Positions 1 through 21,526 of a DNA stretch of 64,000 nt are shown here, in pieces. Location: assembly GCA_032718475.1 (NCBI GenBank), contig JAUCBJ010000160.1:1-64000 (forward strand). The letters run 5' to 3'. Position 1 is the stretch's first letter; each line of letters starts with the position of its first letter. Both the position numbers and the translations under genes were made by a program. Below the pieces are notes generated by a model, which did not search any database, was not told where the DNA came from, and worked only from the letters and a program-made list of their open reading frames with translations. Source of the stretch: Nemertoderma westbladi (Eukaryota; Animalia; Xenacoelomorpha).

Positions 1-2495
1 TACGTGATTATTTCGAACTTATGCAATTTATATTATTCTGAACTTATGCAATTTATATTGTTCCGAATATTATGCAATTTATATCTTATAAGCAGTATTT
101 GTACCTAAAGAGAAAGTTTTATAGACAGAAAAATTTGTGCTCAGAAAGACTCATATTTGTAATTATTCCAAAACTTATGCAATCTACATTTAGGTACGAA
201 AGTATTTGTAATTACTTGAATTTATGCAATATTTGAGATACAATAGTAGATGGAAGACTTGCGAGCCTTTCTTATTGTTTTCATTTATTTGTATTTGTAA
301 TTGTTTGAATTTATGCAATATCTGAGATGCAATAGATTTATATTGGTGAATTTAATTTAGATTTATATTGTACTTACTTAGTAAAGCCATAAATACGTAA
401 AGTTTGAATTTGTAATTATTTTTGTATCGAATCATTACGTAAAAAGGAAGTATTGTTTGAAATTTAATTGTAAATATGTAAGTACGCCCTAAGTATTCCA
501 TAGTTTGATTGATTATTGGTGAAAACCGTATATTTTATGCACGATAATATCCTGTTTTCATGGAGCGGTATAGAATTATATTCCCTAAATGCCGTGGATT
601 TTCAAAATTTTATTTTATTCGAATTAACTTTGTAAAGATTGCTTTGAGTTCTCATTAGTATTGGTTCTATCTATCGTGTATCTATCGGTCAAGTGGTTCA
701 GTAGCTCAGTTGGTAGAGCGTTGGAAATTATATGTGTAGTAGGTATCGAGTTCGAATCCTAGTAAGTGCGAATTATTTTTTGTGCAGAATTTCAACTCAT
801 TTAAATTAACCGCTACAAATTAATTGCATTTGTCTGTACCAATAAGGCTGTAGTTATTTGATTGTAACCAATGTCGTGCAAGTTATATATTAGCTGGACC
901 AATAAGCTATCTTTAAAACCTTGTTAGAATCTATAGAACAATCGAGAATTTTCTCGATTGATTGCGGCACAAATTTGGTATAAAAAGGTGCGATTTCGTT
1001 CATTAATCTAATCTCTACTTACACTACTACTACTTTAGTATTCACTTTATTATCTTATCAATATTCTGTCGTGCTTAGTTTATTCTCAGATTACATTGTA
1101 TTATAATTGTATCTTCTGTAATAAAGTCAGAATATTCTCTCAGCTTTTCTGTTTTACTATGAATTCACTACGGTGAACAAACTCAGGGACAGGATGGCCG
1201 GCTAGAGATCGGGCCGCAGCAATGAACGGGAACATCACGGGAATGTAGACGAGAGACAACCCGCAATACCATTTAAAGTTATTCGCCCATCGCCTGAAAG
1301 GTTAGACAGCGTTCGATCCTTGCTACCTAAGTATAAGACCAAAAGATCAAAGGTAGACGTAGTGACACGCTGCAAGCCTAAAATTACATCATAGGGACTG
1401 TACTGTCTTGATTCAGGGAAAACCGCAGTAGACCTTCATATTCCTACGGGGGGGAGGGAGAGAGAGCAGATACTAGTACGCAGATAGGACGTAGGCACAC
1501 CGGTACAAGGCATACACATTGGTTAGGGTGCAGCGAACTGTACGCTTAACTCTTGCTAAGTACAGGTGTGTGTGCGACTATTTACCGTACAACGGTGTCC
1601 GTTACATCAGAACTTGTAGGCTAGGGGGGTTGCTGTGTTTTCACCTGAATGGGGATTGTACCGTTCAGGCGGTAGGGCAGTTTACGCTAGGCGCAAATAA
1701 ATTGAGGCTATCAGGGATATACTAACATCTACCGTGTCCCCGCCAACGCCCTAATAGGAAGTTACCTGGACTACCTGGGTGACTAAAATTCTAGATAGGA
1801 GCCAGGATAGCTATTAGTACCCGTACGCCTACAGTAGTAAACTAACACATCTCTTCTTAGTATCAGGGACCTGGTACCTAAAATTGCCGAATTCTGGGCG
1901 TAGTATTAACCTTATGCCTGAATTTGAGTCCTGGAAATACGCAAGAGGGGAAGGAACCTTATCATTCGTGAGTATTGGACCTACAAGTTACAAAATTAGA
2001 ATATTCGTAAAATGCACACCGTACCCAGTAATTATATATGTGAAGGAGCAAAACTGCTTTTGACCGTTCAGAATTACACACGCGCGTTAGAAATTATTTA
2101 CACCTCAAAATATATAAAATTAACTTTCGTCCTTACTGCACTTTGCTCGCTAGTTAGACATCTCCAAATATCTGCCTCTATACCTAGCTAGCGTCCCTTT
2201 GCCCAACCATATAAATCACACCGCGGCAAAGTATACGAGCCCCTTAGTCCGTCAGTGAGTCAGCCTGATTTTAGGATTCGCTGCGCGGGATTTGTTTTAT
2301 CGAAGTTTGTCTGCTCGTAGACTGTTTTCTGCCTCACCGGTTAAAAGAGATCGATACTGCAATATATTCGCTTACTTAGGGTTTACTGTTTTGGTGAGAA
2401 GGTCGGATTTATGATTTGATTTACAAACTTTACAGTAGGATATTGCAGGTATTGTTACCGTCTCTTCCGATAGTAGGAATAGGCGTATCTCTCCA
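1..2495 (+). repeat. 5' LTR (partial)
   Basis: Matches 16613-19106 (offset 16612, then 16611 after a 1-bp indel near 2077). Ends ...TCTCTCCA; identity runs 5 nt further (ATTTA, to 2500). Confidence 0.85.
695..781 (+). promoter_or_regulatory. tRNA-derived Pol III unit in the 5' LTR
   Basis: A box/D-arm TAGCTCAGTTGGTAGAGC (702-719), B box GAGTTCGAATCC (748-759), T6 terminator 776-781. Anticodon, T and acceptor stems do not pair. Confidence 0.7.
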
Positions 2496-2500
2496 ATTTA

Positions 2501-2512
2501 GTAGGAATATGA
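2501..2512 (+). other. Putative non-tRNA (self-priming) primer-binding site
   Basis: GTAGGAATATGA is the exact reverse complement of TCATATTCCTAC at 1436-1447. No TGG-type PBS follows the LTR. Confidence 0.55.
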
Positions 2513-3344
2513 TTATTTTAACATATTTCCTAATTTAGTAGGAATATGTTTTACTGAACTACGGTTCGGTAGGACTAAAGTTATTTGAAAATTTTGTATT
2601 TTGAGGTAAAAATTTGTATTTGATTAGCTAAGTGCTAATTTTTTGAAATAAAAATTTGATTTGAACCGCGTGTAAAATATTTTGGAATTGAATACCGGTG
2701 TTTAAAAGGGTTTAAATACCATATTGTACCGGTACAAAATTTTCGTAAAGTAAAACCTAACTCTTTTGTTTTTCAGGATTCAGAACTCATTTCTAGACTG
2801 TAACGGGAGCAAGACCGTGTTTAGCAAGTTTGGGAGATAGATAACTCAACAACTTTGGTTGGGAAAATCGCGTTTCGTCCGCAACGTTAAAAACGGAAAG
2901 GTTCACGTCCGGTTTGTATCTGGGAATCTGTTTTTCTGGAGAATTATTGGAGTGGGTGAGTTCGAAAAGTTGCATAAATAAGTTAGGCATTACCGTATTA
3001 GTTAAAAATTATTGTGGGTTCCACTGTCTCAAGCATTTATGCATTCCGTATGATTTCTTTGTTCATTGCTGAATTAGTCCGTATTATTGTATTTAATTTA
3101 CCTTTGATAACGCATATCGTTATCCGATTTATTTGTTATAAAATTGGCCGCTAGGCTAATTTTATTATATACTTATTCCGTGACATTTATTTGCTGTAAA
3201 ATTGGCCGTTTAGGCTAATTTTATCCATCTGCTATAAAATCGGCCGGTAGGCTAATTTTATATGACTGTAATTAGTACCGTTTTATACAAATACGGTAAA
3301 CTCGATACTTTGACACTCACTTCACTTGACTTACAACTACTGAA

Positions 3345-6300
3345 ATGAGTGACAAACAAGACTATACGAAGAATACACAAACCGACTATGACTCATGTGA
3401 CGGAGATAAGTCAGCAGCGGAAGAACAACAGGGGAAGACTCGCGAGCCTACCGAACCTACACCGTGTGCGTCACCAGTACATCCAACGGGAGTACCGGAT
3501 GCCGTAGTACGAGGCGACGGCAGGACCGAGGACTTTCTAACTGTTCCGCAACCTAGATATAGGGAAACGGAATTGGTAAGTTCAGCAGGAAGCACAGAAA
3601 GTGTGGTTAGAAGCGTCGGAGGATACATGGCGCATATAACCAGGAGCATTGGAGAAGGCCAACGCATATTAGACGGGTTGACCGCTCCGATGTCTCGATT
3701 CGAGTTCTACACCCTCCAGGTTAGAGTACAGAGTAGAGTACACAAGTCCGTAGATAACCTAGTTGGCCTACAAGATCTAGCTAGACAGAGACAGGACATG
3801 GATACTCAACTTAGAATCCTCGAGAAACTAATGATCACTAGAGAGAAACTGATTCAGTTTAAGTCGACGATTAGACAGATACAACAGGAACAAGCGGACC
3901 AGTTGTTAGGTGAGTCAGTTTCGGACGAATTATTACAGCCCGAGGAAGAACAGGAACTGTACCGACTGGATGGACAATTAAAACACCTGACGGACCACTT
4001 ACGCATGTGCGGCGAAGACGTCGGCGATTTGGAAACCGTGCCGGAATACACGAGGGAAACTTCATTCGCACAAATCGAATCGGCACCGGGAATACTAAAT
4101 CAATCATTGGTAAGTATTCGTAGCGAAATCTGCGAAGGAAGTATAGTCACGTCAGAAGTTGCTCGACAACAGCAGCAGTTCTACAGACAGCAACACGAGA
4201 TAGAAGAACAAGCTCAACTTCTAATGATACAAACAGCAGTAGAGGAAGAGAAAATACGTGTTGCGAATGTAGCGAGAATCTCTCATCTGCAGGAACAAGC
4301 CGAACTCGAAGCGGCCGAAATGGAAAGGTTAGAGTTGGACATTGCCCAACAAGCGGCAACGGCCGAGTTAGCGCAACGAACGGCAACAGCCGAGTTAGAG
4401 CGACAAACGGCTGCGGCAGAGTTAGAGCGACAAACGGCTGCGGCAGAGTTAGAGCGACAAAGAGTAGTTTCGGAAGCCAGAGTCGAGATGAAGACACGGC
4501 AAATAAAAGCCCAACAAGCGATACGACAAGCAGAGTTCGAGGCGCAACAACAACAAACGGAACAACGAGAAAAGGAAGTTAAACTTCGTTTCGAACTTGA
4601 GAAGAGGGCGAGAGAATTAGCCGAAACTAAGGAAAATCTGGATCTTCTAGCCCGCGATCGATCGATGAGATCTCGCGACGGACATGATTTGGACCAGTTA
4701 GAGGTAAGACATCGCCAAATTCAGGAACGGAAGAAGGAAGGAAGCGTAGGAGCACCCGGACGGGAACGACAATTAGTAAAAGACGTGTGTCAACGATTCC
4801 CACAGGTAACTCATATGTTTGCACCGGTTACGACTAAGGAACCTGTTTCGATTGCGGGTAGTAGTGATATTTCTCCTATCCATGGTGCGACGGAACACAG
4901 GTTTGTTATTCCGGACAAGTTTACACCGCCAAGAGCAACGTCGTCGCCTATTCCGAGAGTCAAGGTAAGTAACCCACCGATTACAGATCGTAGTAGTTTA
5001 TTGACCGGACCTGCGCTACTGACGACAAAACAGGTGAGTCCACCTTTGACGCCTAAACCCGTTACACATTACGCTTACCCAATGACGTTTCGACCTACAA
5101 GGCCAGTTGTTTCAAATGCTGTCATTCGCCCACCGGTTCAGTTTACATCGCAATCTACGACTTCGAGGAAGACTTGTGAGCCTACCGAACAACGGAGAAC
5201 AGTGGAGACGCGACCGTTCAACCAGTTTACATCGCAATCTACGACTTCGAGGAAGACTTGTGAGCCTACCGAACAACGGAGATCAGTGGACGATGTTCCG
5301 AAACGAGCCGTTAGAATTCGAACGACGCAACGGATGCGAGCACGTCGACCACCATATCCAGATGATAGTAGTACTTCGAGCGAATCGGATTACCCGAAAC
5401 GCGAGGTATTTAGAACAGGGGCGGCCGATGAATATAAACGCGAGCGTTCAGACAACTCCTTTGCAGACAATCCTCCACAGAATACACCAACACAGAAGGC
5501 GTTACAACCAACGGACGCAATTAGTACACAACAGTTCGCCGACATTCTGCGACCAGTTGTCAACAAGTTGGCTCAGATCGAGGAGCGTCTGGAGGAAGTT
5601 CAAACCGATAGTTCGAGGAACACCGAATTCGAACACAATAGACACCCGAAGGCACCACAAAGACCGGTACCTTCAAACCCCACATCGTATCAGGGAAAAG
5701 CGCCAAGAAGGGAGAACATCAACCAGGTTACCAACCAAGGACGCGAAACTCTGAACGTTGCTGAGGAGATAGCAAAATTCGCAGCCAGACAAGGATTGCC
5801 GGTACAACAACCACCGAAGTTTTCCGGTAGCTCAAAACACTGGCATACCTTCGTAGACTATATCGAATCCCAGATCGCCGTGTGCGCCTTTACATCACGG
5901 GAGAAGTTCAATTACCTGCTCCAAACGTTGTCAGGAGAACCTAAACGTTTGGCGGAGACTTTCGTCGGTGTACCGGACGCTTTCGAACTAGCGTACGATC
6001 GTTTGACTTCGATATACGGAGGTACAGTGAGTATGGCCAGGTCAGTAATAGAGGAACTCTGTAAGGGAGGGGCTATCACTAAACCCGTCGACTTACTAAA
6101 ACTGGCTGACGAGATTAAGAACGCTATCACTACCTTAAGATCAATTGGACAACTTGATTACGGGAATACCCCTACAGTTCTATTAAAGATAATAGGACGA
6201 CTCCACCATCGACTTCGTCGGGAGTGGAGGAAGGTCGAATACCAGCGAGAGGAGCGGGGAGGATTCTTAAAATTAGAAGATGTGTACCTTTTAATATCCA

Positions 6301-9300
6301 GGGAGGCGGTAGTAGAAACTCGATCTAACTATACCGACCAGCACATCGTGGCAGAAGGGATCACACTGCCATCCTCCAACCGACAAAAACCCCAGACAAC
6401 ATCCACAAAGACGGCCACTTACGCCACACCGACGGAATCACGACAATTCTCAGACGGTAATAGAGTATCTGCGCCCATTGGGACGAAACAGACGAGACAG
6501 CAACTCAGCGCCGACTTCAACGGCTGCCAATACTGCGAACATTTAGGTAAGCGGTATATTGGTCACAAGTTACGAGGTTGTCGACAATTTCGCGAGTTGA
6601 ACTCAGAAGAACGACGGCTGCAGATACGGCCACTGGACTCTTGTTGGCGGTGTACGCGACACGGACACGTCCGTAAGGATTGCCCAAATACCGACACTTG
6701 TCCATCCTGTGGACGCAACCACGACGGTCTGCTCCACACAGACAGCCACACGCCGACGAAACGCTTCGCCAGGGAACACCCGGAAGCAGCAGCGAGATGT
6801 GATGCGGCTTACCGAAAACGAGAATCGAAAACGACTCCGACTTTCGTGACCCATATAGAGGATTGCTTTTCAGAACAATCCGGATCGTCGGACGAAGAAT
6901 CAGACGACGACGAATATTCTAATGGAGACGAACAACCGTCAATCGCGCTCCTGACCACTGACCAACTGAAGGGATTCAGTGTAATCCCGATTAAAGTTAC
7001 TGGCACAAAAGGGAGTAAGAGGATTTACGCGATTCTAGACTCAGCCTCATCTCACAGTTACGTGGATGAAAAGATAGCTGACGTCGTAACGGATCTCAGA
7101 CAAGGTAAACACGTAAGTTATACAGTAAGTAGTATGCATGGCCAGCGTGCAATACCAGTGACACGAGTTAAGTTGGACTTAGACTCTCTTCTTCCAAAAT
7201 CGCAACACAGCGAGAGGGAGAGATCTTTGTTACCCTTTAGAGATCTAACCTTTGCGGCCACGAAGGACTTTAGTAACCTACTAGGTCCAGTGCCGGAACA
7301 ATCTCTGGAGGACCGTAAGTATTTCAGACACCTTGGTGTACCCGAATGTCCTGTCAATTATAGATCAGTAGCAATGCTGATCGGGACGGACCAATTCAAC
7401 CTACATCAGGTGTGGGAAACCAGACCATCGGCAGTTGTAGCAGGAAACGCATACGCCTGCAGAACGCCGATAGGGTGGTATACACGAGCGCCTGTGCGCA
7501 CACTAGACGTAAGTGACGAGGAAGACGATGTACAGAGTACATGTAGTTTATTAACTACAAATTCAATTCATTCCTTTTCACACGACGTGAACCATACTAC
7601 GCTACAGTCGACAAAACATGACAGACGTGTAACTAGTATGATAAGTCACAAGGAGCAGCTAATCCACAAGGTGAGTTTAGAACTTGGGGAGAAGACGAGT
7701 CAGCTAGAGATTCCATCGACGACAGATGATAGGCTTGCGAGTCTACCTACCCCAATAACCTCAACAGTGCCCATCGATATCGACGATGACGCGTTGAAAA
7801 TTCATCAGTTGGAACAAGCCGCCTTGGACAAAGAATTAACGGAGAAGACTATCAGGTGGTTAGAACAAGATACGGCTGAACCTGGTAGCTACGACCCTTG
7901 TATGTCGGAACAGGAGAAACAATCTCTAAAGATCATGGAGGATACTATCCGACAGACGGAGGACGGACATTACGAGGTGGGGATGTTATGGCGTAGCCAA
8001 AGTCCTAAACTTATAAATAACTACCCACTGGCTTTAAGACGTCTACACTCAATCCGACAACGTCTATTAAAGGACGAGAAAGCCCATCTGCAGTATAACA
8101 CTCAGATGGAGACGTATTTGACGAAGGGATACGCTATCAGAATGACTAACCCGGAGCGAGTGACCGACCAGACATACTACCTGCCACATCACTATGTGAG
8201 ACATCCCGATAAACCAGACAAAGTACGTGTAGTCAATGACTGTGCGGCTCTATTTGAGGGAATGTCCCTCAATAGTGAGTTGATGGATGGACCGAACATG
8301 AATAATTATCTTATGGGGGTGATTATGCGCTTCCGTCAGCGCCAAGTAGCCTTTACTTGTGACGTTGAAGCGATGTTTCACCAAGTAAAAGCGTTAGAGC
8401 GAGACAGAGACAGTTTGCGGTTTCTCTGGTATCCGGAAGGGGACTTAAGTCTACCACCAGCGACTTACCAAATGCAAGTTCGCGTTTTCGGTGCCAGAGA
8501 CAGCCCAAATTGTACGATGTACGCCTTGAAGCAAGCCGCTAGAGATCAGAAACATCTGTATGACCCAGAGATAATTAGAATTGTAGAACGTGACTTTTAC
8601 GTTGACGACGGATTACAGAGTTGCGACACAGTAGAACGTGCTACAACAGTAGCACATCAATTACGGGACTGCTTGGCGAGCGGAGGTTTTAACCTCACCA
8701 AATTCGCCTCAAACAGTGCCGAATTAGTTGACTCATTCGGAACTACTGAGCGTGGAGGTGGTGACATAGACCTAGAGTTCGAACCACTACCGACGACTAA
8801 GGTGTTGGGGCTCTTTTGGGACCCAAACACAGACAACTTTCGAGTGAAGGTGAGACTGGACAGTCAAGGAAACACACTGACCAAGAGATCATGCTTGTCA
8901 AAGTTGAGCCGATTGTTCGACCCGTTAGGATTCATCAGTCCAGTGATACTGCAAGCCCGCATTTATATGCGCAGTATATGGAAGGATGGACTAACGTGGG
9001 ACGAGCCGATCTCATCAGATCAAGTGGACTTATGGAAGACCTGGGAGGCGGAATTGTCTTCGTTAGAGGATTATTCCATACCCAGGGTTTACTTTCCATT
9101 ACAGAGTACATTTCCTGACAACTTGGAACTACACTGTTTTTCCGACGCCAGTGACAACGGGTTTGGTGTGGCAGCGTATTTGCGCAGACAAGTAGAATCA
9201 GACGAGTTCGATGTTTCGCTCATTACTTCCAAGGCTAAGACCATGCCTACTAAGTATATGACGACACCACGAGCCGAGCTACAAGCCGCGACCCTGTCAA

Positions 9301-12002
9301 CCACCATCGTGAACCTCATACAGACAGAACTACAGTCGAGTTTACAGATATTTTATTGGACTGACGCGACGTTGGTTTTATTTTACATAAACAACGACAC
9401 ACTCGAATTCAAGACATTCGTAGCTAACCGTCGCGCAGAGATTCTAGACCGTTCGATAAAAGAGGATTGGCGACATTGTCCCGGACCACAAAACCCAGCT
9501 GATATTGCGTCGCGAGGAATGATGCCTGAGGAATTCTGTAAACCGGAGAACAAAGAGTTTTGGCAACACGGACCCCAGTTCTTGCAGAAATCGACACAAG
9601 ATTGGCCTCCGTTATACGACAACAAGTCCAACACCATTCCTAAGGACGCCGAAATCAAGAAACCAAAAAAGGGGAAGACAAAGAAAAGGACGACGGCGGC
9701 GAAACTAAAGAAAAAACCGAAGGCGAAATGGAAGGATATAACTTCAAAGGTCAAGAGAGGAAGACTTGCGAGCCTTTCTACACCAGACATATCGCCAGAC
9801 GGTCAACCAGACACGTTACTAGACAGTCAACCAGACATTTTGCCAGACATATCACAAAATGTTCCACCAGACGCTAGTAACACACTGACAAACAGTAAAG
9901 CCGCAGTTTCTCTATTGGAGCGGCCTTCTATTGACAAACTACCAGATACGTTACCAGACGTATCGCCAGACACATTACTAGACAGTCGACTAGACATTTT
10001 GTCAGAAACATCACAAAATGTTCTACCGGACATTAGTAATGTATCAACTAACAGTAAAGCCGCAGTTTCCCTATTGGAGCGGCCTTGTATTGACAAACTA
10101 CCAATTTTGACACACTTGAGCAACCATAAGCATGGTGAAACCTCATGTATTGCAGATGTGGGTAGTACCTACGCTAATGTAAATACAGGTGTTACTTTGC
10201 GCTCAAGAGACATACCGAACTTACAACCTATGGTGAGACCTGGGATTAATGTCGGCAGGAAAATAAGTTTACCGAAACCTGCTGACCCCATAGAGTTCAA
10301 ACCACCATTAACGATCGACTTACAAAGTACTGACGATCAAGGTAAGAAGACGAAGAAGGACAAATTACTTGTAGACCCGGACGGATCAACAGTCAACAAG
10401 GGAATACTTACCGGCGGACCCGTGGGCCCTTCTAGTAATTCAAAACCTTCCAAGTTCTCCATTGACTTACCTGATGACGTCACAAATACTTACGTCGACC
10501 GTATCGTAAACTTAACAGACTCTTGGTCAAACGCTTGCCGAAAATTAGCGTGGATTGTACGTTTTGTACAATACGTTAAAGGCAAACGTGACTTTACACG
10601 TCGACTTACATTGGCTGAGATTGACAGGTGTGAGATTAAATTAATTCGCCATTACCAACTGCGATATTTCGCGCGCGAATTCACATCTATACATCAAGGT
10701 CAACCAATCAAGTCGTCACCGATACTGAGTTGGAGTCCGATAATTTATAATGGCTTACTTTGTCATAAATCTCGGCTTCAAAACATTGACTTTAACACAA
10801 ACTTTAGGTACCCAATAATAATACCGCAACATCACGAACTACAACGTGCAATGATACTGGACGCACATTTACATCTGAAACACGCTGGAAGACACCACTG
10901 TCTTTCCTACTTACGTACTAGATTTGTATTAATTAGACCCAGTAAAGCATTAAGTTCAGTGACACGTACGTGTATTATTTGTAAAAAGGTACATTCTAGA
11001 ATAGGTACCCAAGAAATGAGTGAACTACCACAAGCACGACTTCAAGCATTCAGACCACCTTTTACAGAGACTGGAATTGATTGCTTTGGTCCCATACATA
11101 CTAAACGTGGACGTATACTAGTAAAACGCTGGGGACTGATTTTCACATGTATGTCCAGTAGGGCAGTTCACATTGAACGTGTGATGGATCTTTCCACCAA
11201 CGCGTTTATACTAGCACTGCGGCGATTTATCGCTAGACGCGGACTAGTAAAATGCTTGTACTCAGACCAAGGGACAAACTTTGTTGGTGCTCGGAATGAG
11301 ATTGCTAGAGCCTTTAAGAGATTAGATCATGATCAAATCTCGAACGAACTGCAACCTCACAAGATTGTTTGGAAGTTTAATCCTCCAGATAGTCCTTGGA
11401 GAGGCGGAGTCTGGGAGAGATTGATTAGATCTATCAAAACGGCCATGGCAAAGGTCATTCCAGTAAACCACATATTAACAGACGACCAACTGACAACATT
11501 GTTTGTTGAAATCGAGGCAATACTAAATACTAGACCAATAGTATTAGTACCCGATGACAAACAATCTCAGTTCGCTTTAACACCAGCACACCTGCTTATG
11601 CAGGCACCGACCACATTGACGCCGATTTCCATTCCAATGGAAAGCGATAGTTACGTGAGAAAAGCGTGGAAAATCACGCAACTACTGGCTAACAAATTCT
11701 GGGAAATATGGCAAAACCATTATTTGCCCTCTATTTCTGCCAGAACAAACTGGTATAATAACACCCGCGCATTAAAGCCGGGAGATCACGTGCTGTTGGC
11801 AGAAGTGAATCTAAAAAGACGCTTCTGGATAACAGGTGTCATTTTAGCCACACATCCATCTATGGATGGAGTGACAAGAACTGTGACGGTACGAACAATT
11901 GAGGGTCGCACAGTAGACAGACCGACTCAACGTCTCGTACTTCTTGAAGAGACTCGTAACGAGTCTGGAGACTACAAATCTCCACCTAATACTAGTAAAT
12001 AA
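3345..12002 (+). CDS. BEL/Pao Gag-Pol polyprotein (2885 aa)
   Basis: Gag PKFSG..W..F region; knuckles CWRCTRHGHVRKDC and CPSCGRNHDGLLH; protease AILDSASS (D at 7038); RT FYVDD (8598-8609); RNase H ELHCFSDAS/PRAELQAA/WTDA/NPADIASRG; integrase H..H..CIIC, IDCFGP, SDQGTNF, GGVWERLI. No stops. Confidence 0.97.
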   Translation: MSDKQDYTKNTQTDYDSCDGDKSAAEEQQGKTREPTEPTPCASPVHPTGVPDAVVRGDGRTEDFLTVPQPRYRETELVSSAGSTESVVRSVGGYMAHITRSIGEGQRILDGLTAPMSRFEFYTLQVRVQSRVHKSVDNLVGLQDLARQRQDMDTQLRILEKLMITREKLIQFKSTIRQIQQEQADQLLGESVSDELLQPEEEQELYRLDGQLKHLTDHLRMCGEDVGDLETVPEYTRETSFAQIESAPGILNQSLVSIRSEICEGSIVTSEVARQQQQFYRQQHEIEEQAQLLMIQTAVEEEKIRVANVARISHLQEQAELEAAEMERLELDIAQQAATAELAQRTATAELERQTAAAELERQTAAAELERQRVVSEARVEMKTRQIKAQQAIRQAEFEAQQQQTEQREKEVKLRFELEKRARELAETKENLDLLARDRSMRSRDGHDLDQLEVRHRQIQERKKEGSVGAPGRERQLVKDVCQRFPQVTHMFAPVTTKEPVSIAGSSDISPIHGATEHRFVIPDKFTPPRATSSPIPRVKVSNPPITDRSSLLTGPALLTTKQVSPPLTPKPVTHYAYPMTFRPTRPVVSNAVIRPPVQFTSQSTTSRKTCEPTEQRRTVETRPFNQFTSQSTTSRKTCEPTEQRRSVDDVPKRAVRIRTTQRMRARRPPYPDDSSTSSESDYPKREVFRTGAADEYKRERSDNSFADNPPQNTPTQKALQPTDAISTQQFADILRPVVNKLAQIEERLEEVQTDSSRNTEFEHNRHPKAPQRPVPSNPTSYQGKAPRRENINQVTNQGRETLNVAEEIAKFAARQGLPVQQPPKFSGSSKHWHTFVDYIESQIAVCAFTSREKFNYLLQTLSGEPKRLAETFVGVPDAFELAYDRLTSIYGGTVSMARSVIEELCKGGAITKPVDLLKLADEIKNAITTLRSIGQLDYGNTPTVLLKIIGRLHHRLRREWRKVEYQREERGGFLKLEDVYLLISREAVVETRSNYTDQHIVAEGITLPSSNRQKPQTTSTKTATYATPTESRQFSDGNRVSAPIGTKQTRQQLSADFNGCQYCEHLGKRYIGHKLRGCRQFRELNSEERRLQIRPLDSCWRCTRHGHVRKDCPNTDTCPSCGRNHDGLLHTDSHTPTKRFAREHPEAAARCDAAYRKRESKTTPTFVTHIEDCFSEQSGSSDEESDDDEYSNGDEQPSIALLTTDQLKGFSVIPIKVTGTKGSKRIYAILDSASSHSYVDEKIADVVTDLRQGKHVSYTVSSMHGQRAIPVTRVKLDLDSLLPKSQHSERERSLLPFRDLTFAATKDFSNLLGPVPEQSLEDRKYFRHLGVPECPVNYRSVAMLIGTDQFNLHQVWETRPSAVVAGNAYACRTPIGWYTRAPVRTLDVSDEEDDVQSTCSLLTTNSIHSFSHDVNHTTLQSTKHDRRVTSMISHKEQLIHKVSLELGEKTSQLEIPSTTDDRLASLPTPITSTVPIDIDDDALKIHQLEQAALDKELTEKTIRWLEQDTAEPGSYDPCMSEQEKQSLKIMEDTIRQTEDGHYEVGMLWRSQSPKLINNYPLALRRLHSIRQRLLKDEKAHLQYNTQMETYLTKGYAIRMTNPERVTDQTYYLPHHYVRHPDKPDKVRVVNDCAALFEGMSLNSELMDGPNMNNYLMGVIMRFRQRQVAFTCDVEAMFHQVKALERDRDSLRFLWYPEGDLSLPPATYQMQVRVFGARDSPNCTMYALKQAARDQKHLYDPEIIRIVERDFYVDDGLQSCDTVERATTVAHQLRDCLASGGFNLTKFASNSAELVDSFGTTERGGGDIDLEFEPLPTTKVLGLFWDPNTDNFRVKVRLDSQGNTLTKRSCLSKLSRLFDPLGFISPVILQARIYMRSIWKDGLTWDEPISSDQVDLWKTWEAELSSLEDYSIPRVYFPLQSTFPDNLELHCFSDASDNGFGVAAYLRRQVESDEFDVSLITSKAKTMPTKYMTTPRAELQAATLSTTIVNLIQTELQSSLQIFYWTDATLVLFYINNDTLEFKTFVANRRAEILDRSIKEDWRHCPGPQNPADIASRGMMPEEFCKPENKEFWQHGPQFLQKSTQDWPPLYDNKSNTIPKDAEIKKPKKGKTKKRTTAAKLKKKPKAKWKDITSKVKRGRLASLSTPDISPDGQPDTLLDSQPDILPDISQNVPPDASNTLTNSKAAVSLLERPSIDKLPDTLPDVSPDTLLDSRLDILSETSQNVLPDISNVSTNSKAAVSLLERPCIDKLPILTHLSNHKHGETSCIADVGSTYANVNTGVTLRSRDIPNLQPMVRPGINVGRKISLPKPADPIEFKPPLTIDLQSTDDQGKKTKKDKLLVDPDGSTVNKGILTGGPVGPSSNSKPSKFSIDLPDDVTNTYVDRIVNLTDSWSNACRKLAWIVRFVQYVKGKRDFTRRLTLAEIDRCEIKLIRHYQLRYFAREFTSIHQGQPIKSSPILSWSPIIYNGLLCHKSRLQNIDFNTNFRYPIIIPQHHELQRAMILDAHLHLKHAGRHHCLSYLRTRFVLIRPSKALSSVTRTCIICKKVHSRIGTQEMSELPQARLQAFRPPFTETGIDCFGPIHTKRGRILVKRWGLIFTCMSSRAVHIERVMDLSTNAFILALRRFIARRGLVKCLYSDQGTNFVGARNEIARAFKRLDHDQISNELQPHKIVWKFNPPDSPWRGGVWERLIRSIKTAMAKVIPVNHILTDDQLTTLFVEIEAILNTRPIVLVPDDKQSQFALTPAHLLMQAPTTLTPISIPMESDSYVRKAWKITQLLANKFWEIWQNHYLPSISARTNWYNNTRALKPGDHVLLAEVNLKRRFWITGVILATHPSMDGVTRTVTVRTIEGRTVDRPTQRLVLLEETRNESGDYKSPPNTSK

Positions 12003-12665: not shown

Positions 12666-15600
12666 ATGGAGAAAGGGATACAAGGAGAGCCGAGATGGGG
12701 ATATGATATCCAAGAGGAGGCAGCAGCGCCATTCGAAAGATTTGGAGCCAAGGATTACACTATATTTGGTATAAAAGAATTATCGGAAAGTACAGCGAAA
12801 CTCGCGAGAACTAAATATGACTCGAATGTATTAAAGAGAAGGCAAAACGCATTAAACGAAAGAATCGAAAGTTTGCGCCAAACCTTCAACGAACTTTACC
12901 CGTACGATGCTTTGTGTGATACGGGAGACATTAGCGAAGACCCCGATACTGAAATTAGTCGTTTGTATCATACCATGCAATACCTAAAGGCGCACGAACC
13001 TATGCCTGCGGTACGCGATGAATTCGATGGAATGCATCTTTACAGACGAACTCGAGGGGACGATAGAGAAACCAAGGAAGCATTTTCAGTTTATAAACTT
13101 TATTATCAATGCGGTTCTTGTATGCGTGAACAACGAAATGCGATTCCGATGCGTTTGAATAAGGAAAATCCCGAACCGATATTGGCGAGATGTTCGAATC
13201 ATCAACAACTACGCTACCAGGAAGGAGGGTATCCTTTATCGAATCCATATCATTCATTTGCTATGACCGGACCAAAGGCGGGAGAAACTGTCATTTACCC
13301 ACCTAAGGTTGTTGAACCCGATGTATTTGAACTTACGCTGGACGAGGCGAATCAGTCAACCCGCGAAAAGAAAGAAGCTCTTAGCCTATACAGAGCCTAC
13401 AAGGCTTTCGAGAAAGGTGAGATGGAAGAATGGGGTGGAAGACTCGCGAGCCTACCTTGCCATTGGACGTCACACGATCAAACTTCAGCTAAGGAGATGA
13501 CACCGGAAGTTTTCGAGAGCATAAACTTCGCTCAAAACGTTATTCAGAGACTACAGATTGCATCCCCGGAGAGGCCAAGAGAAATGCAACCGTATAGTAC
13601 TGCAGCTACGAAACCATTGAGTACGACACTCAACTTTCCTATTAGTATACCAGTCCGACAGGATACGACGTACGAAATACCCATCGTGGATCATCCAGAA
13701 ATCATTTCAAACTTGGAGTTTCTTCCTGCAGTTGTTTTCAGCGATATGAGTAAGATATGTGATTTACGTAGACATATTACTCAAAAGGTCGTGAACAACG
13801 TTCCACCTCATATCCAAGATTTTAAGGAACTGGATAGAGCTGGTGCCGATATAGCTCCGAGTAATCTGAAAGGATATCTAACCAAGACGATTCGTTTATG
13901 GATTGGAATCGGAACCTTCGAGTCGGATACAGATATTGCCGCAGATTGGCGAGGTAAGGTTATTCGTTTCGATGAGGATAAGGATATAGAGAAGATTTGG
14001 CAACCTTCGGAAGAATTGTTGGATGAATGGACTAGGACGTTTAGATCGTTTCAGGAAAACGGTTATATGTTTTACGATAACGAGGGCGGCAGTCATCAGC
14101 AGAGTTTGACTTCTAAGACTATACAGATTAGAGCGGCGGACGGAGTCCTGCACGTTTTCAGTAGACAGAGGAGCGACAAACGAATGCCGATACCTCCAGC
14201 GAATACAAAGCGACACCATCTTATCACCGATATAGTAAAGAAGATGGACCAAGCTTGTAATATTGACGCTAGAATGCTACCGAAGATGGTAAGAAACATG
14301 ATTTTAGATAAAACTGTTGTAAAGGTTGGATCAGGAGTAAGGGAGGATTTAATTAGCGACTTCGCCGGCATGACGGACAGCGATGACCGACTACCGACAC
14401 CATACGTCGACACCCGACCTCTTATTCTGTGGTCTATAGAACAGGGATATTTTCGTGAGTATAATACTCAGAAGACTGGAACTGGATACATTTCCTACCT
14501 GTTATTCAATTGGGATTATAAGGAAGGTAAAAGAAACAAGTATATTGAAACTTATGGAGAAGGTGATACTCCAGATATGAGTGAGTTTGAATCACAGCTT
14601 AAATGGAGAGGATGCGTGTATTGGGCTATTACGTCACCTCCAAGAGCGGTCTTACAATATTATTTAGCAATAGAGTCGTCAGTGAATGTTTGCCTAATCG
14701 CCGACATTGTGTCTCGGACTCTCAAAAGACATCCACTTTGTCTCGGAGAAGATCATACGTTCTACATGGAAGGGAGAATTCGTACCGACGTGTTTAGACG
14801 ATTCCTTGAACCCTTCTACAACTCCGACGCTCAGTGTAATGCCTTTACTCGAGCAGGATTTAGTATATTTCGAGACGTGTATCTTCGCTGTGCGGGATCT
14901 CTTATCGAAAGACCATCTATGTTTACATTGTTACCCTATGAAGGAGAACGTATCGTGGAGATTATGGATGAATCACGGCAGACGCGCGCGTCTATCGGTC
15001 ACCTCGGTGATGATTTCAACGTAACTACTACGATCGCCGACGATCCTTTAGAGGAACTTCTTGAGATTGAAAGGAACCTCCCGAAGAAATCTCAGACGGA
15101 GATTCGACAACTTGAAGCAACAGATGCTATAGTTTGCCTACAACCTTCAGAAACCTACCAACCCATAGACCCAGATGATTACGATTATAGTGTGGGAGGA
15201 AGCGCTCGACCGATTGGAGATCTTATATACGAACGAGTGTGGTACCCTGCTAATACGATGTGTAGTAAATGTGGCGTCGCTGGACATCATATGGCAAAGT
15301 GCAGTGGAAAGCACATTACTACGACTCAGCTAATCTGTGGATGGTGTGGGGATCAAGGGTCTCATACCTTTTATACTTGCTGGAGATTTATGGCTCAGTG
15401 TACTTACTGCAATATAAAGGGACATCGAGCATCTGAATGCCAACTAAGAGACATACCTTATGAACACGAATCTGTAAAACTCGTGAGGAAGTTATTTGAT
15501 GAGTGGGAAGATTTGGCCGACGAACATGTATCGGCACAGAGAAGACGGTTTCCGATGAGAGCGCATCTCGGATTTTGGGCGGTAAATCCCCAGACGATGA

Positions 15601-16391
15601 TGTCGGAAGGATATATCTCCGCTATGCCCCAATATGACGAACTTATCGAGGTTGTTGATATTTTGCCCCACGACAGCGGATTCCGAGTGGTGCGCGAGTA
15701 TCTGTTACAGATTCACCCGGATAACAAAAACACGTGGAATTTTCAGAAAGTCGTAAATCGTATCACGTATGGTGAATTTGATCGTTTCCGAACCGAAAAG
15801 CGGAATAAAGGAGCTTGGTTAACCGTCGCATGGGCGTACCGAGCCGCGTTTTACCATAAACGTATACGAGCGAGCGTATTCGAGGAAGAAGAGGTCCTAG
15901 AGGCGACGAATATATCAGCCACTCCGGTTGCGCCGTCTGCACGTCACCCTCGGGAGGACGGACAGGGTAGGATCATACGGGTCCAGAAAGTGGGCCAACA
16001 ATTGAAGAAAATTATTAATGTGGAAGAACGCAAGGGAGTTGAGCCGACTATTCGAGTTACTCGGGATACGGTATCACTTCCAAGAGAACCGGTAGGAGGA
16101 TCGGGACATACACCAGCTGATCAACAGGGGGCGCAAGCTACTCTTGGGTCTGCGTCGTCCGCTTCTCACGCGTTCCCAGACGTTCTACCGACTGTAGTGA
16201 CGACTGATCGGTCACGAGGAATTGGTCGAGGTTTTGGGATGCCAAATAGACGAATTTGTGAGGAAATAGTCGCACCGTCTCTTAACGTCCCAAGTAAACC
16301 AGTGACTCGCCCCACAAGTCCCATATCGCGAGCAAAGTCACCTGTGCGCAGTTTTCGAGGACGCGGCAGGGCTCGATCCACTAAGCGATAA
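12666..16391 (+). CDS. Retrotransposon ORF2: DEDDy-like (RNase D/WRN-exo family) 3'-5' exonuclease domain plus 3 CCHC zinc knuckles
   Basis: ExoI FYDNEG (D471,E473); ExoII ILDKTVVKVGSGVRED (D561); YVDT; ExoIII-like W...QYYLAIE (Y666,E670). Knuckles CSKCGVAGHHMAKC, CGWCGDQGSHTFYTC, CTYCNIKGHRASEC at 15261-15440. Confidence 0.8.
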   Translation: MEKGIQGEPRWGYDIQEEAAAPFERFGAKDYTIFGIKELSESTAKLARTKYDSNVLKRRQNALNERIESLRQTFNELYPYDALCDTGDISEDPDTEISRLYHTMQYLKAHEPMPAVRDEFDGMHLYRRTRGDDRETKEAFSVYKLYYQCGSCMREQRNAIPMRLNKENPEPILARCSNHQQLRYQEGGYPLSNPYHSFAMTGPKAGETVIYPPKVVEPDVFELTLDEANQSTREKKEALSLYRAYKAFEKGEMEEWGGRLASLPCHWTSHDQTSAKEMTPEVFESINFAQNVIQRLQIASPERPREMQPYSTAATKPLSTTLNFPISIPVRQDTTYEIPIVDHPEIISNLEFLPAVVFSDMSKICDLRRHITQKVVNNVPPHIQDFKELDRAGADIAPSNLKGYLTKTIRLWIGIGTFESDTDIAADWRGKVIRFDEDKDIEKIWQPSEELLDEWTRTFRSFQENGYMFYDNEGGSHQQSLTSKTIQIRAADGVLHVFSRQRSDKRMPIPPANTKRHHLITDIVKKMDQACNIDARMLPKMVRNMILDKTVVKVGSGVREDLISDFAGMTDSDDRLPTPYVDTRPLILWSIEQGYFREYNTQKTGTGYISYLLFNWDYKEGKRNKYIETYGEGDTPDMSEFESQLKWRGCVYWAITSPPRAVLQYYLAIESSVNVCLIADIVSRTLKRHPLCLGEDHTFYMEGRIRTDVFRRFLEPFYNSDAQCNAFTRAGFSIFRDVYLRCAGSLIERPSMFTLLPYEGERIVEIMDESRQTRASIGHLGDDFNVTTTIADDPLEELLEIERNLPKKSQTEIRQLEATDAIVCLQPSETYQPIDPDDYDYSVGGSARPIGDLIYERVWYPANTMCSKCGVAGHHMAKCSGKHITTTQLICGWCGDQGSHTFYTCWRFMAQCTYCNIKGHRASECQLRDIPYEHESVKLVRKLFDEWEDLADEHVSAQRRRFPMRAHLGFWAVNPQTMMSEGYISAMPQYDELIEVVDILPHDSGFRVVREYLLQIHPDNKNTWNFQKVVNRITYGEFDRFRTEKRNKGAWLTVAWAYRAAFYHKRIRASVFEEEEVLEATNISATPVAPSARHPREDGQGRIIRVQKVGQQLKKIINVEERKGVEPTIRVTRDTVSLPREPVGGSGHTPADQQGAQATLGSASSASHAFPDVLPTVVTTDRSRGIGRGFGMPNRRICEEIVAPSLNVPSKPVTRPTSPISRAKSPVRSFRGRGRARSTKR

Positions 16392-16406
16392 AAGGGAGGG
16401 CAAGGG
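16390..16406 (+). other. Polypurine tract candidate
   Basis: AAAAGGGAGGGCAAGGG at the ORF2 stop, directly before TG at 16407. Confidence 0.6.
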
Positions 16407-19106
16407 TGGACGGAAGACTCGTGGGCCTTTCTTATGATTTGTGATTTATTTCGAATTATATGTTTTATATTTAGAAAATTTAGTAAACTTATATTTTATA
16501 TTTGTGCTTATTTCGAACTTATGCAATTTGTATTGTTCCGAATTTATGAAATTTAGAAATAAGAACTCATATTTAGTAAACTTATATTTAGTAAGAATTT
16601 ATATTTTATATTTACGTGATTATTTCGAACTTATGCAATTTATATTATTCTGAACTTATGCAATTTATATTGTTCCGAATATTATGCAATTTATATCTTA
16701 TAAGCAGTATTTGTACCTAAAGAGAAAGTTTTATAGACAGAAAAATTTGTGCTCAGAAAGACTCATATTTGTAATTATTCCAAAACTTATGCAATCTACA
16801 TTTAGGTACGAAAGTATTTGTAATTACTTGAATTTATGCAATATTTGAGATACAATAGTAGATGGAAGACTTGCGAGCCTTTCTTATTGTTTTCATTTAT
16901 TTGTATTTGTAATTGTTTGAATTTATGCAATATCTGAGATGCAATAGATTTATATTGGTGAATTTAATTTAGATTTATATTGTACTTACTTAGTAAAGCC
17001 ATAAATACGTAAAGTTTGAATTTGTAATTATTTTTGTATCGAATCATTACGTAAAAAGGAAGTATTGTTTGAAATTTAATTGTAAATATGTAAGTACGCC
17101 CTAAGTATTCCATAGTTTGATTGATTATTGGTGAAAACCGTATATTTTATGCACGATAATATCCTGTTTTCATGGAGCGGTATAGAATTATATTCCCTAA
17201 ATGCCGTGGATTTTCAAAATTTTATTTTATTCGAATTAACTTTGTAAAGATTGCTTTGAGTTCTCATTAGTATTGGTTCTATCTATCGTGTATCTATCGG
17301 TCAAGTGGTTCAGTAGCTCAGTTGGTAGAGCGTTGGAAATTATATGTGTAGTAGGTATCGAGTTCGAATCCTAGTAAGTGCGAATTATTTTTTGTGCAGA
17401 ATTTCAACTCATTTAAATTAACCGCTACAAATTAATTGCATTTGTCTGTACCAATAAGGCTGTAGTTATTTGATTGTAACCAATGTCGTGCAAGTTATAT
17501 ATTAGCTGGACCAATAAGCTATCTTTAAAACCTTGTTAGAATCTATAGAACAATCGAGAATTTTCTCGATTGATTGCGGCACAAATTTGGTATAAAAAGG
17601 TGCGATTTCGTTCATTAATCTAATCTCTACTTACACTACTACTACTTTAGTATTCACTTTATTATCTTATCAATATTCTGTCGTGCTTAGTTTATTCTCA
17701 GATTACATTGTATTATAATTGTATCTTCTGTAATAAAGTCAGAATATTCTCTCAGCTTTTCTGTTTTACTATGAATTCACTACGGTGAACAAACTCAGGG
17801 ACAGGATGGCCGGCTAGAGATCGGGCCGCAGCAATGAACGGGAACATCACGGGAATGTAGACGAGAGACAACCCGCAATACCATTTAAAGTTATTCGCCC
17901 ATCGCCTGAAAGGTTAGACAGCGTTCGATCCTTGCTACCTAAGTATAAGACCAAAAGATCAAAGGTAGACGTAGTGACACGCTGCAAGCCTAAAATTACA
18001 TCATAGGGACTGTACTGTCTTGATTCAGGGAAAACCGCAGTAGACCTTCATATTCCTACGGGGGGGAGGGAGAGAGAGCAGATACTAGTACGCAGATAGG
18101 ACGTAGGCACACCGGTACAAGGCATACACATTGGTTAGGGTGCAGCGAACTGTACGCTTAACTCTTGCTAAGTACAGGTGTGTGTGCGACTATTTACCGT
18201 ACAACGGTGTCCGTTACATCAGAACTTGTAGGCTAGGGGGGTTGCTGTGTTTTCACCTGAATGGGGATTGTACCGTTCAGGCGGTAGGGCAGTTTACGCT
18301 AGGCGCAAATAAATTGAGGCTATCAGGGATATACTAACATCTACCGTGTCCCCGCCAACGCCCTAATAGGAAGTTACCTGGACTACCTGGGTGACTAAAA
18401 TTCTAGATAGGAGCCAGGATAGCTATTAGTACCCGTACGCCTACAGTAGTAAACTAACACATCTCTTCTTAGTATCAGGGACCTGGTACCTAAAATTGCC
18501 GAATTCTGGGCGTAGTATTAACCTTATGCCTGAATTTGAGTCCTGGAAATACGCAAGAGGGGAAGGAACCTTATCATTCGTGAGTATTGGACCTACAAGT
18601 TACAAAATTAGAATATTCGTAAAATGCACACCGTACCCAGTAATTATATATGTGAAGGAGCAAAACTGCTTTTGACCGTTCAGAATTAACACGCGCGTTA
18701 GAAATTATTTACACCTCAAAATATATAAAATTAACTTTCGTCCTTACTGCACTTTGCTCGCTAGTTAGACATCTCCAAATATCTGCCTCTATACCTAGCT
18801 AGCGTCCCTTTGCCCAACCATATAAATCACACCGCGGCAAAGTATACGAGCCCCTTAGTCCGTCAGTGAGTCAGCCTGATTTTAGGATTCGCTGCGCGGG
18901 ATTTGTTTTATCGAAGTTTGTCTGCTCGTAGACTGTTTTCTGCCTCACCGGTTAAAAGAGATCGATACTGCAATATATTCGCTTACTTAGGGTTTACTGT
19001 TTTGGTGAGAAGGTCGGATTTATGATTTGATTTACAAACTTTACAGTAGGATATTGCAGGTATTGTTACCGTCTCTTCCGATAGTAGGAATAGGCGTATC
19101 TCTCCA
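16407..19106 (+). repeat. 3' LTR (~2.7 kb)
   Basis: TGGA...TCCA inverted termini, preceded by a purine tract; near-identical to 1-2495. The left edge is inferred because the 5' copy is cut by the window. Confidence 0.75.
17307..17393 (+). promoter_or_regulatory. tRNA-derived Pol III unit in the 3' LTR
   Basis: Copy of 695-781. Confidence 0.7.
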
Positions 19107-19226
19107 ATTTAATTTATCTCTTTAACTGTGCAACTACTGTGTATATTACTTTACCTGTGTAACAATTTCTCTCTGTATTTTTGTAACTAATTATCTCCTT
19201 ACCTGTGTAACTATATCACTGCTTAC

Positions 19227-19375
19227 CTGTGTAAATATTCCTTTCGTTGTTGGCTCCATTGTAGTTGTTGTAATAGGTGTGCCACCGTAAGTTTGGGGTG
19301 CTTCAGCTGTTGATGTTGCCTCATTTAGCACAGCAGCAACATTAGATATAAACTGACTGGCATTACGAACACTCC
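19227..19375 (-). CDS. Exon of a polycystin-1/REJ-like host gene (last seen in window)
   Basis: TTATAG| ... CAG|GTAAGC; phase 1 to 0; GSVRNASQFISNVAAVLNE... continues in frame from 25587. Confidence 0.75.
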
Positions 19376-19392
19376 CTATAACATATCAAAAA

Positions 19393-21526
19393 GACTTAGT
19401 CTGCGTGCTAGCAGAACAACGAAATCTGCCTTGCCGCGGCATGACTGGTCCTCTCTGTTGCAACAGCCAAGTGTGAGATCCAGCTTCACACTACAGCTGA
19501 GCAACAGGTATGAGGCAGATGCGGCAGATCACTGTGAGGGCTATACTGCCTTTACAGAAGCAGTTAAGTTAGCAGCTGCAGAAACAGTTCCTGTATACCC
19601 TCGAAACAGGAAAAGGGCCCCCTGGACTGACAACAAAATTCAGAAGTGCCGAAATGACCTTCATAAGGCGCAGAAAGAGTCCCGACTCAAACAGACTACA
19701 GCGGCCAAGAATGCAGTTAAGGCTGCATCTAGGTCCCTGAACAGGCAGTACTCTGCTAATCTACAGGAGGTAATAAACCAACAGGTTGATGCCATCAATG
19801 ATGCTGACGACAGCAGGCAATCAATGGTTGGAAAGCCCACTTTGAAAAGCTCCTCAATAATGACAGGGTATTGCCTGATAACTTTATAGAAGTAAAAGTG
19901 TCTGAGTCTGTACTCCCAGATATTCCCATTGGCGATGTCTCCTTTGCAGAAGTGAAGGCTGCTGCAAAGAGCATTAAGACCAATCGTGCCAGTGGAGTAG
20001 ATGGTGTTCCCCCTGAGGTCTTTAAAATACTTGAGTGTTTAAAGCTCATCTATCGCATCATAGTAGACATGTACCGAACAACAAGAGTCCCACAAGAAAT
20101 GAAAACAAATAAGTTGGTGCCAGTTCCCAAGAAGGGCAACCTAACACTCTATGGTTCTTTTCGGGGAATCTCATTGATCTCGATTGCTGCAAAGCTATAC
20201 AATAGGATTCTATTAAATCGCATCAGGGATCCCATTGAGAGACTGCTCCGTGGAAATCAGAATGGGTTCCGTAAAGGTCGTGGAACCATGGAGCCCATTT
20301 TGGCACTTAGAAGGATAATTGAAGAGTTATCAAAAAAGAAAGACAGGCATCTGGCTGTTATCTTTGTTGACTTCTTCAAGGCCTTTGATTCAGTCTCTCG
20401 CTCACGTATGTTCAGCATACTTTCATTATATTGGATTCCTGATGAAATTATTGCAGCAATCAGATCAGTATACGATGGTTCGACAACATTTGTGTCTACT
20501 GTTGACGGTGACACAGAACCATTTGAAGTGTTATGGGGCGTCCTCCAGGGAGACACACTTGCACCATTCTTGTTCATTATTGTGGTTGACTATGTTCTAC
20601 GCATGTCCTTAGATCATTATAATGATGATGGGGTGATGATAACTCCACCTAATGGCTCCAGAAGTCGAGGAAATCCTGCCAAGTACCTAACTGATCTAGA
20701 CTTTGCTGATGACTTAGGAGTACTCTCAGAATCATTAGAGGGAGCCCAACGGCTCCTCAGCTCATCAGAACATGCTGCTTCTAGTGTTGGTCTTTTTATT
20801 AACTCTAGAAAGACCAAAATTCTGAAAGTTAACTTTGAAAGTCCTCAGTAAGTCTCTGATCGGATGAGCATAAGCTCAAAGGATGGTATGCTTGAGCATG
20901 TGGACGACTTCTGTTACCTGGGATCATGGATCCGGAAGTCAGGTGAGGACCTTCGAATACGTAAGGGAAAGGCATGGGCAGCCTTGAATAGGCTTTCCAG
21001 GATTTGGAAGTCACCGAGAATTAATCGGAAACTTAAGGTCCGATTATTTAGAGCAGCAGTAGTTCCAGTACTCCTCTACGGGAATCCATGCTGGGCTCTA
21101 ACTGCTGAGGACACCAAATCTCTGGATGGCACATTCACAAGAATGCTACGCCGGGTACATTGTGTCAAGTACAATGCACACATCTCCAACCAGACTCTAT
21201 ATAACATTGGAGGGGTCTCATTGGTTCCCCCAAGCTTGACACTAGAACAAAATCGCCTCCGCTTTGCAGGACATTGCTTTCGCCGTGAGGACCAGCCAGT
21301 GCTTAATCTTGTACTTTGGCAGCCTCATGGAGTGAATAAGCATGGTGGACAGCCCATGACTTTCTTGAGACGCATCTTAAAGGACACTGGCCTTAAAGAT
21401 GCGGATGATCTAGCAAATGTCATGGGTGATAGGGAGTTGTGGCGGTGCAATTTCGTTGACAAGCCGGCACAGCATTCTTAAAAATGCAGCTGCAATGCAG
21501 CATGCCGATCCTAGTAGTAGTAGTAG
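19393..21526 (+). mobile_element. 5'-truncated RTE-like LINE with disrupted RT
   Basis: RT motifs QNGFR, FVDFFKAFDSV, GVLQGDTLAPFLF, LDFADD, RLRFAGH; frameshift near 19830-19870, stop at 20849; (TAG)n tail; 16-bp TSD TATAACATATCAAAAA at 19377-19392 and 21527-21542. Confidence 0.9.

Follow-up and report, generated by a model that had tools for sequence, protein, structure and literature searches.

An intact, high-copy BEL/Pao retrotransposon of Nemertoderma westbladi with a primer-binding site complementary to its own LTR: a likely case of Tf1-like self-priming

The closest described systems to the one considered here are Tf1 and Tf2 of Schizosaccharomyces pombe, Tj1 of S. japonicus and the Tf1/sushi group (Ty3/gypsy), in which the primer-binding site (PBS) pairs with 11 bases of the element's own RNA, there is no tRNA site, and structured RNA lies nearby. 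In the RNA of Tf1, RNase H cuts between bases 11 and 12 (PMC7175516, PMC4600332). Self-priming is described for Tf1, Tf2, Tj1 and sushi, and it is predicted for Tcn1 and TAR (PMC4600332, PMC7175516, PMC6317226). The Tcn1 chromoviruses and the TAR elements of copia (Houba, Osr-1) are comparable to the present case in that self-priming was predicted from sequence (PMC6317226), but they are plant or fungal gypsy/copia lineages, not BEL/Pao.

For BEL/Pao elements, the ICTV profile of the Belpaoviridae gives an 18-nt PBS for tRNA-Arg or tRNA-Gly, LTRs of 0.2–1.2 kb and genomes of 4.2–10 kb (PMC8742986). By word count, the main texts of the Sinbad paper (PMC554778) and of a survey of BEL/Pao elements (PMC3118150) mention neither PBS nor tRNA. 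A search of the openly accessible literature, supplements aside, gave no report of self-priming in BEL/Pao. The sub-clades of BEL/Pao carry the names Pao, BEL, Tas, Suzu, Sinbad, Dan and Flow.

Here we describe an element at the start of a window of 64,000 nucleotides (positions 1 to 64,000 of contig JAUCBJ010000160.1, assembly GCA_032718475.1) of the xenacoelomorph Nemertoderma westbladi. We propose that this element is likely to start its minus-strand DNA from a 5′ fragment of its own transcript, cut after position 1447. It is an intact, high-copy BEL/Pao LTR retrotransposon; the features given for it lie on the plus strand. A single intact ORF, 3345..12002, encodes a Gag-Pol protein of 2885 aa in which Pfam finds DUF1759 (7.4e-11), Peptidase_A17 (2.5e-42), Integrase_H2C2 and DUF5641 (1.7e-20), in keeping with the Pao order of capsid/knuckle, protease, RT, RNase H and integrase. 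Among the best 120 of 3185 relatives, identity in the RT–RNase H region is at most about 44–45%, and PF05380 is carried by all 120. The Pol domains are thus of the Pao type and not of the Ty3/gypsy chromovirus type that marks Tf1/sushi. Flanking LTRs and a polypurine tract (PPT) are present, as expected of BEL/Pao. Between its RNase H and integrase parts, the Gag-Pol ORF has a long insertion, which contains a 159-nt tandem duplication (9782–10103).

The element resembles Belpaoviridae (Semotivirus) in its Pao-type domains, in its continuous Gag-Pol ORF and in the PPT that precedes the 3′ LTR. It differs in lacking the tRNA-Arg or tRNA-Gly PBS of the ICTV description, in a terminal repeat of at least 2.5 kb, in a total size of about 19 kb, in an LTR that ends in TA, and in an extra ORF of 1241 aa. 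It is assigned to BEL/Pao because of its protein domains, not because of its PBS type.

We compared the window with four runs of the same organism, X1 to X4, read as contigs, of which X1 and X2 represent one sample. The four runs contain 58–69% of the sampled words, and their contigs portray a high-copy, variable family. BLASTN of the window against itself aligns 1–2500 with 16613–19111 at 99.96% identity with one gap, ending at 2500/19111. The 5′ LTR, or upstream terminal repeat, takes up 1..2500 of the window, and its 5′ end may lie outside the window. The 3′ LTR is placed at 16407..19111; identity covers its part from 16613 to 19111, and contig depth collapses after 19105 in all four runs. 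Its start is a candidate position: the best PPT in a sequence scan, 16390..16406, is followed by TGG at 16407 and would make the LTR 2.7 kb long. Alternatively, the LTR may be 1.3 kb and stand in a tandem pair. Summed contig depth rises near 17780 in X1 and X4, not in X3, and is too unreliable to place the LTR start. Under both layouts the candidate primer described below falls inside the LTR.

Some copies in X3 and X4 repeat the PPT-adjacent module further downstream (16402–16850), a region with many deletion variants. Beyond the element, the flank at 19208–19300 is uncovered by contigs of X3. A broken non-LTR retrotransposon (RVT_1, DUF6451) occupies 19329–21519, just past the 3′ LTR, with a second partial copy of about 93% identity at 25809–26903, and 22156–25062 holds an element of the foldback or DNA-transposon type with 924-bp terminal inverted repeats of 95% identity.

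The 12 nucleotides that follow the 5′ LTR, 2501–2512, are the exact reverse complement of 1436–1447. The earlier note, made from the letters of the window, had pointed to this complement and to an end of repeat identity at 2500, and both were reproduced by self-BLASTN. Within 1–28000 the 12-mer is unique, and its complement occurs only at 1436 and at 18048. The interval 2481–2620 contains no TGG; therefore, the element is without a PBS for an intact tRNA end, as the note had also held. ARAGORN found no tRNA genes, and a search for Rfam families gave nothing above chance in 1–4000. We propose that 2501..2511 is a putative PBS of a type other than the tRNA type, flush with the LTR end, on the evidence of complementarity, contigs and the TGG scan, and that 1437..1447 is the candidate self-primer of 11 nt (12 with 1436 in the window copy), whose 3′ end would face 2501. 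The predicted duplex has a free energy of −13.7 kcal/mol. The 3′-LTR copy of the primer sequence, 18048..18059 by self-BLASTN, would be the template through which the primer region is inherited.

As in Tf1, then, a PBS at the LTR end is complementary to the element's own LTR, and the site most likely works as that of Tf1 does while sitting in a BEL/Pao element. The Tf1/sushi elements differ in belonging to another superfamily; here, moreover, the primer and the PBS are 1.06 kb apart, and the primers of relatives often lie across a predicted splice junction.

A nematode element is reported to encode its own tRNA primer. A tRNA-like stretch, SINE-like and with the look of an A-box and a B-box, lies inside the terminal repeat at 693–770 and 17305–17382 and is called by neither ARAGORN nor Rfam. 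An element-encoded tRNA primer from 693–770 was rejected, as the stretch has no cloverleaf fold and forms merely a broken duplex with the PBS region.

Contigs from other copies agree on the position of the junction. In X3, a contig covering 2463–2500 ends at 2500 and three contigs depart there into unlike sequence, while variants in X1 and X4 end in ACA immediately before the same PBS. Therefore, the LTR end is at 2500, with the PBS directly after it and a spacer of zero. One further X3 contig departs at 2492 and is ambiguous. An LTR end at the CA of 2494–2495 was considered and is disfavoured by the three X3 contigs and by the ACA-ending variants. The LTR thus ends in TA rather than CA (2496–2500 and 19107–19111), the sister variants having ACA at the same position, and TA is probably a derived form of CA. 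Elsewhere in the LTR, one X3 contig over 18239–18940, at depth 37, differs at 90 of 701 bases, and the differences listed are almost all A>G in the sense orientation. It may reflect ADAR-like hyper-editing of RNA from the LTR, or a copy that is hypermutated; that X3 is DNA is a guess.

The window copy belongs to a minority subfamily with a 37-nt insert, 2501..2537, which duplicates the PBS (second copy at 2538–2548) and contains an imperfect inverted copy of it. The insert is recognised from a drop in depth, a joint that skips the 37 nt, loose ends at 2511 and the fold; summed contig depth in X1, X2 and X4 is 0.2–5 thousand over 2501–2530, against 40–90 thousand just after. Since most copies lack 2501–2537, the family-wide match is 11 nt (1437–1447), and the twelfth pair is seen with the insert form; the 12 nt of the earlier note are true of the window copy but not of the family. 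Two shorter copies had also been placed at 2473 and 2539: the first is there, but the second starts at 2538 and is a full 11-nt PBS. The insert could come from a slipped second strand transfer because Tf1 cDNA retains a copy of the PBS and untemplated bases at its 3′ end (PMC11042837).

How often would such a match arise by chance? Against the 2.5-kb repeat, complements of at least 11 nt occur at 15 of 13,820 positions of the internal region and complements of 12 nt at 5 of 13,820; in the AT-rich leader, 11 nt are reached at 3 of 785 positions. A Markov null gives 0.00085 for at least 11 nt and 0.0003 for 12 nt. The chance of a complement of at least 11 nt at the junction is thus about 0.001. 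A fortuitous match is favoured by the setting, an AT-rich and locally repetitive junction in which several short TAGTAGGA-like repeats surround the PBS (2435–2575), and by the fact that the match was picked from many windows inspected. Against it stands the figure just given, which refers to the one relevant position, together with the partner variants and the distant families described below (at least 10 nt in 11 of 12 families and in 3 of 126 controls). Taken with these, we regard chance as very improbable.

Among 40 of 194 variant places, one lies in the primer: 18051 T>C, equivalent to 1439, makes up 20% of summed depth in X1, 25% in X4 and 100% in X3. From 1439 T>C the partner change 2509 A>G, at the ninth base of the PBS, was predicted before the PBS region was examined, and it is found in loose ends of X1, X2 and X4, that is, in two samples and two studies. 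It is the only clear PBS substitution among 20 of 33 loose-end records. The covariation concerns one position and two transitions, with the alleles seen on separate contigs and without linkage on one molecule. X3 fits poorly: its sole primer contig has C, and its deeper PBS contig (43.6 against 19.6) retains A, which leaves a mismatch. Either this counts against covariation or solo and 3′ LTRs dominate X3. For covariation of the two sites, which the earlier note had named as a thing to look for, the runs thus give one candidate pair, 1439 T>C and 2509 A>G, unlinked and with X3 at odds; among the distant families, 11 of 12 are self-complementary.

Those families come from a profile scan of metagenome contigs, in which the best 80 of 565 BEL/Pao loci were considered; viral contigs gave no loci. 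Twenty-six of the 80 have a direct repeat, and 13 have a usable LTR 3′ end, which makes 12 families after L031 and L050 are merged; the other 67 loci are uncounted. In 11 of the 12 families the PBS is complementary to the family's own LTR over 10–15 nt, in eight across a predicted splice junction and in three contiguously. The contiguous matches, of 10–12 nt, are those of L010, L011 and L034, and the LTR ends of L011 and L034 are uncertain. The twelfth family, L021, is of the tRNA type; by eye, L033 and L015 have a tRNA-type site too. The earlier note had taken loss of complementarity in relatives as evidence that would speak against self-priming; in the 11 families complementarity is present, with PBS letters that are mostly different.

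When any GT..AG intron is allowed, nine loci (eight families) match over 10–15 nt, and all nine do so at a GTAAG donor with a pyrimidine-rich acceptor; under this looser null, cross-family pairs reach at least 10 nt in 7 of 126 and at least 12 nt in 2 of 126. Requiring GTRAG and YAG, a restriction chosen after the looser result, leaves 11 of 12 families with at least 10 nt against 3 of 126 cross-family controls, of which none reaches 11 nt (0/126); the controls omit six pairs among three related families. The predicted splice-built primers, 10–15 nt across a GTAAG..AG joint, are in the LTRs of L006, L014, L018, L029, L031/L050, L060, L067, L070 and L080. A blind search in five loci of which only the LTR start is known gave a standout match at an ACA end in three (L008, L018 and L044, with L008 of the same family as L006) and no convincing match in the other two. 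A splice-built primer was also considered for the window element and rejected: its match is contiguous (12 nt), and the best spliced one is 9 nt, the background level.

In most relatives the PBS begins with GT, 0–4 nt past the LTR, and the primer ends in AC, and the window element is alike in this. In a quick tree of 76 rows, from which short matches excluded 5 of the 80 loci, the window element forms a long branch (1.51), and the smallest supported clade that contains it mixes spliced-primer and tRNA-type elements. The relatives therefore inform on the superfamily and not on the lineage of the window element. On these sequences, the signature of a self-complementary PBS is widespread in BEL/Pao, which does not imply inheritance in the lineage of the window element.

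The same data bear on the possibility that the primer is a host RNA, whether a fragment from within a tRNA, an atypical tRNA or some other small RNA, that acts at 2501 or close to it. The pairing between LTR and PBS would then be a switch, structural or regulatory, by which the site is masked. Priming by tRNA-Arg or tRNA-Gly is described for BEL/Pao (PMC8742986), half-tRNA primers are known in copia lineages (PMC6317226), and the tRNA-type relatives L021, L033 and L015 stand in the same supported clade as the window element. The window also contains a satellite of 19.5 kb (28389–47953) built of 41-nt (20+21) units, and the unit carries a 9-nt complement of 2498–2506, present at 537 places. This complement is probably due to chance, and it straddles the LTR end by 3 nt, a misfit with an end at 2500. 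Besides the lack of TGG around the junction, a fixed host primer would reset the PBS in each cycle and would not let it follow a variant of the LTR, and in eleven families the PBS letters are mostly different while each PBS matches its own LTR. On balance, we consider a host primer unlikely.

We return to the primer that we prefer, a 5′ portion of the element's transcript. Self-priming as such, when first suggested, had behind it the complement in the window; it now has a zero-spacer LTR end in other copies, a partner variant and the 11 of 12 distant families, and we infer the steps at the RNA level, namely the RNA start, the cleavage and the priming. The transcript would begin within the 5′ LTR, at 1437 or further upstream, and its primer piece could be an 11-mer like that of Tf1 or a capped one of greater length, starting for example at about 1361. 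A motif scan shows a TATA-like TATAAG with TAGTG 28–29 nt downstream of it (1332..1363), which makes the vicinity of 1361 an alternative start candidate. The TCATATT at the primer, read in the earlier note as Inr-like, offers nothing beyond resemblance. The primers of spliced relatives suggest that the primer may be a longer 5′ fragment and need not be the first 11 bases.

The RNA would then fold back, so that 1437–1447 pairs with the PBS beside a hairpin. This hairpin, 2549..2574, has 11 bp and a UACG loop, lies directly 3′ of the PBS copy at 2538–2548, and is predicted to stack on the primer duplex (−11.8 kcal/mol, z −5.3, equalled by 0 of 200 shuffles). In most copies, which lack the insert, the 11-nt PBS is followed by the UACG hairpin at once. 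A second stem-loop is predicted, weakly, in U5 at 2460..2484 (−8.8 kcal/mol, z −1.8, equalled by 12 of 200 shuffles). In folds from ten starts within 1361..1440 to 2600, the primer pairs with one or the other PBS copy with p of at least 0.99 in 10 of 10. In a fold of 1300–2700, the primer is sequestered by 1613–1631, and in one of 1438–2700, the first PBS copy has p of 0.18. Pairing of 1453–1459 with the U5 end at 2488–2494 is predicted with p about 0.5 in the 1437–2600 fold and is absent in two other folds. A stem between AGATAC (1468–1473) and GTATCT (2485–2490), proposed in the earlier note, is allowed by the letters but predicted in none of three long folds. Such long-range folds are weak evidence, as they depend on the ends chosen and predictions tend to pair any perfect complement.

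Cleavage after 1447, for which the element's RNase H is the most plausible agent, as in Tf1, would free a 3′-OH paired to 2501; a purine run, 1448..1466, lies just 3′ of the predicted cut. Reverse transcriptase would copy U5 from 2500 onwards. With an AATAAA that a motif scan places downstream of the primer, 1696..1701, about 270 nt of repeat would remain available to strand transfer once the RNA is cut. Later, plus-strand synthesis would copy the primer, so that the PBS would be rewritten from the LTR in each cycle; therefore, both sites would change together.

A PBS rewritten from the LTR would also be expected if the primer came from the 3′-LTR copy (18049–18059), either of the same RNA or of one packaged with it, after trimming down to the duplex. 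A 3′–5′ exonuclease encoded in ORF2 might do the trimming. That copy exists, and so does the ORF: ORF2, 12666..16391, encodes 1241 aa with CCHC knuckles (zf-CCHC, E 0.023), and part of it resembles DEDDy exonucleases, by motifs only. One relative (P0122, E 1.8e-5) has the same full architecture, two weak matches occur among representative sequences, and a word search gave no ORF2 homologues. DEDDy-type ORF3s are known in the bdelloid rotifer LTR elements Juno and Vesta, where an extra 3′ ORF past pol perhaps encodes a 3′–5′ exonuclease (PMC5408684); ORF2 of the window differs in its length, in its CCHC knuckles and in that no tool supports a DEDDy identity. Searches for a DEDDy or RNase D-like nuclease in ORF2 gave no Pfam match and no PDB profile match, and two structure models, with pLDDT of about 30, show no usable fold. 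In addition, trimming would cost the trimmed molecule the repeat on which its strand transfer depends, and the LTRs of self-complementary relatives in which both are visible lie only about 6.0–7.4 kb apart, start to start, too close for an ORF2 of comparable size to fit. Both LTRs of spliced relatives keep the intron, the 3′ copy included; therefore, their primer would have to derive from a 5′ copy that has been spliced. We consider the 3′ copy quite improbable as the primer.

With the 5′ piece as the preferred primer, we lean slightly towards a wider view of the superfamily. Much of animal BEL/Pao would do without tRNA priming and would use an own-RNA primer that is often spliced by the host within the LTR. 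The window element would be an intron-less, autonomous giant among them, whose extra ORF is maybe a 3′–5′ nuclease that finishes the primer end.

Since the copy is intact, the family high-copy and the paired variants natural, endogenous RNA and long reads would suffice for a test of the claim, with nothing altered. Self-priming in BEL/Pao would mean that all three LTR superfamilies use the mechanism. Tools that depend on a tRNA PBS would overlook or mislabel self-priming BEL/Pao elements, and such elements would escape silencing by tRNA fragments. In relatives, primers built across a splice junction would couple retrotransposition to host splicing.
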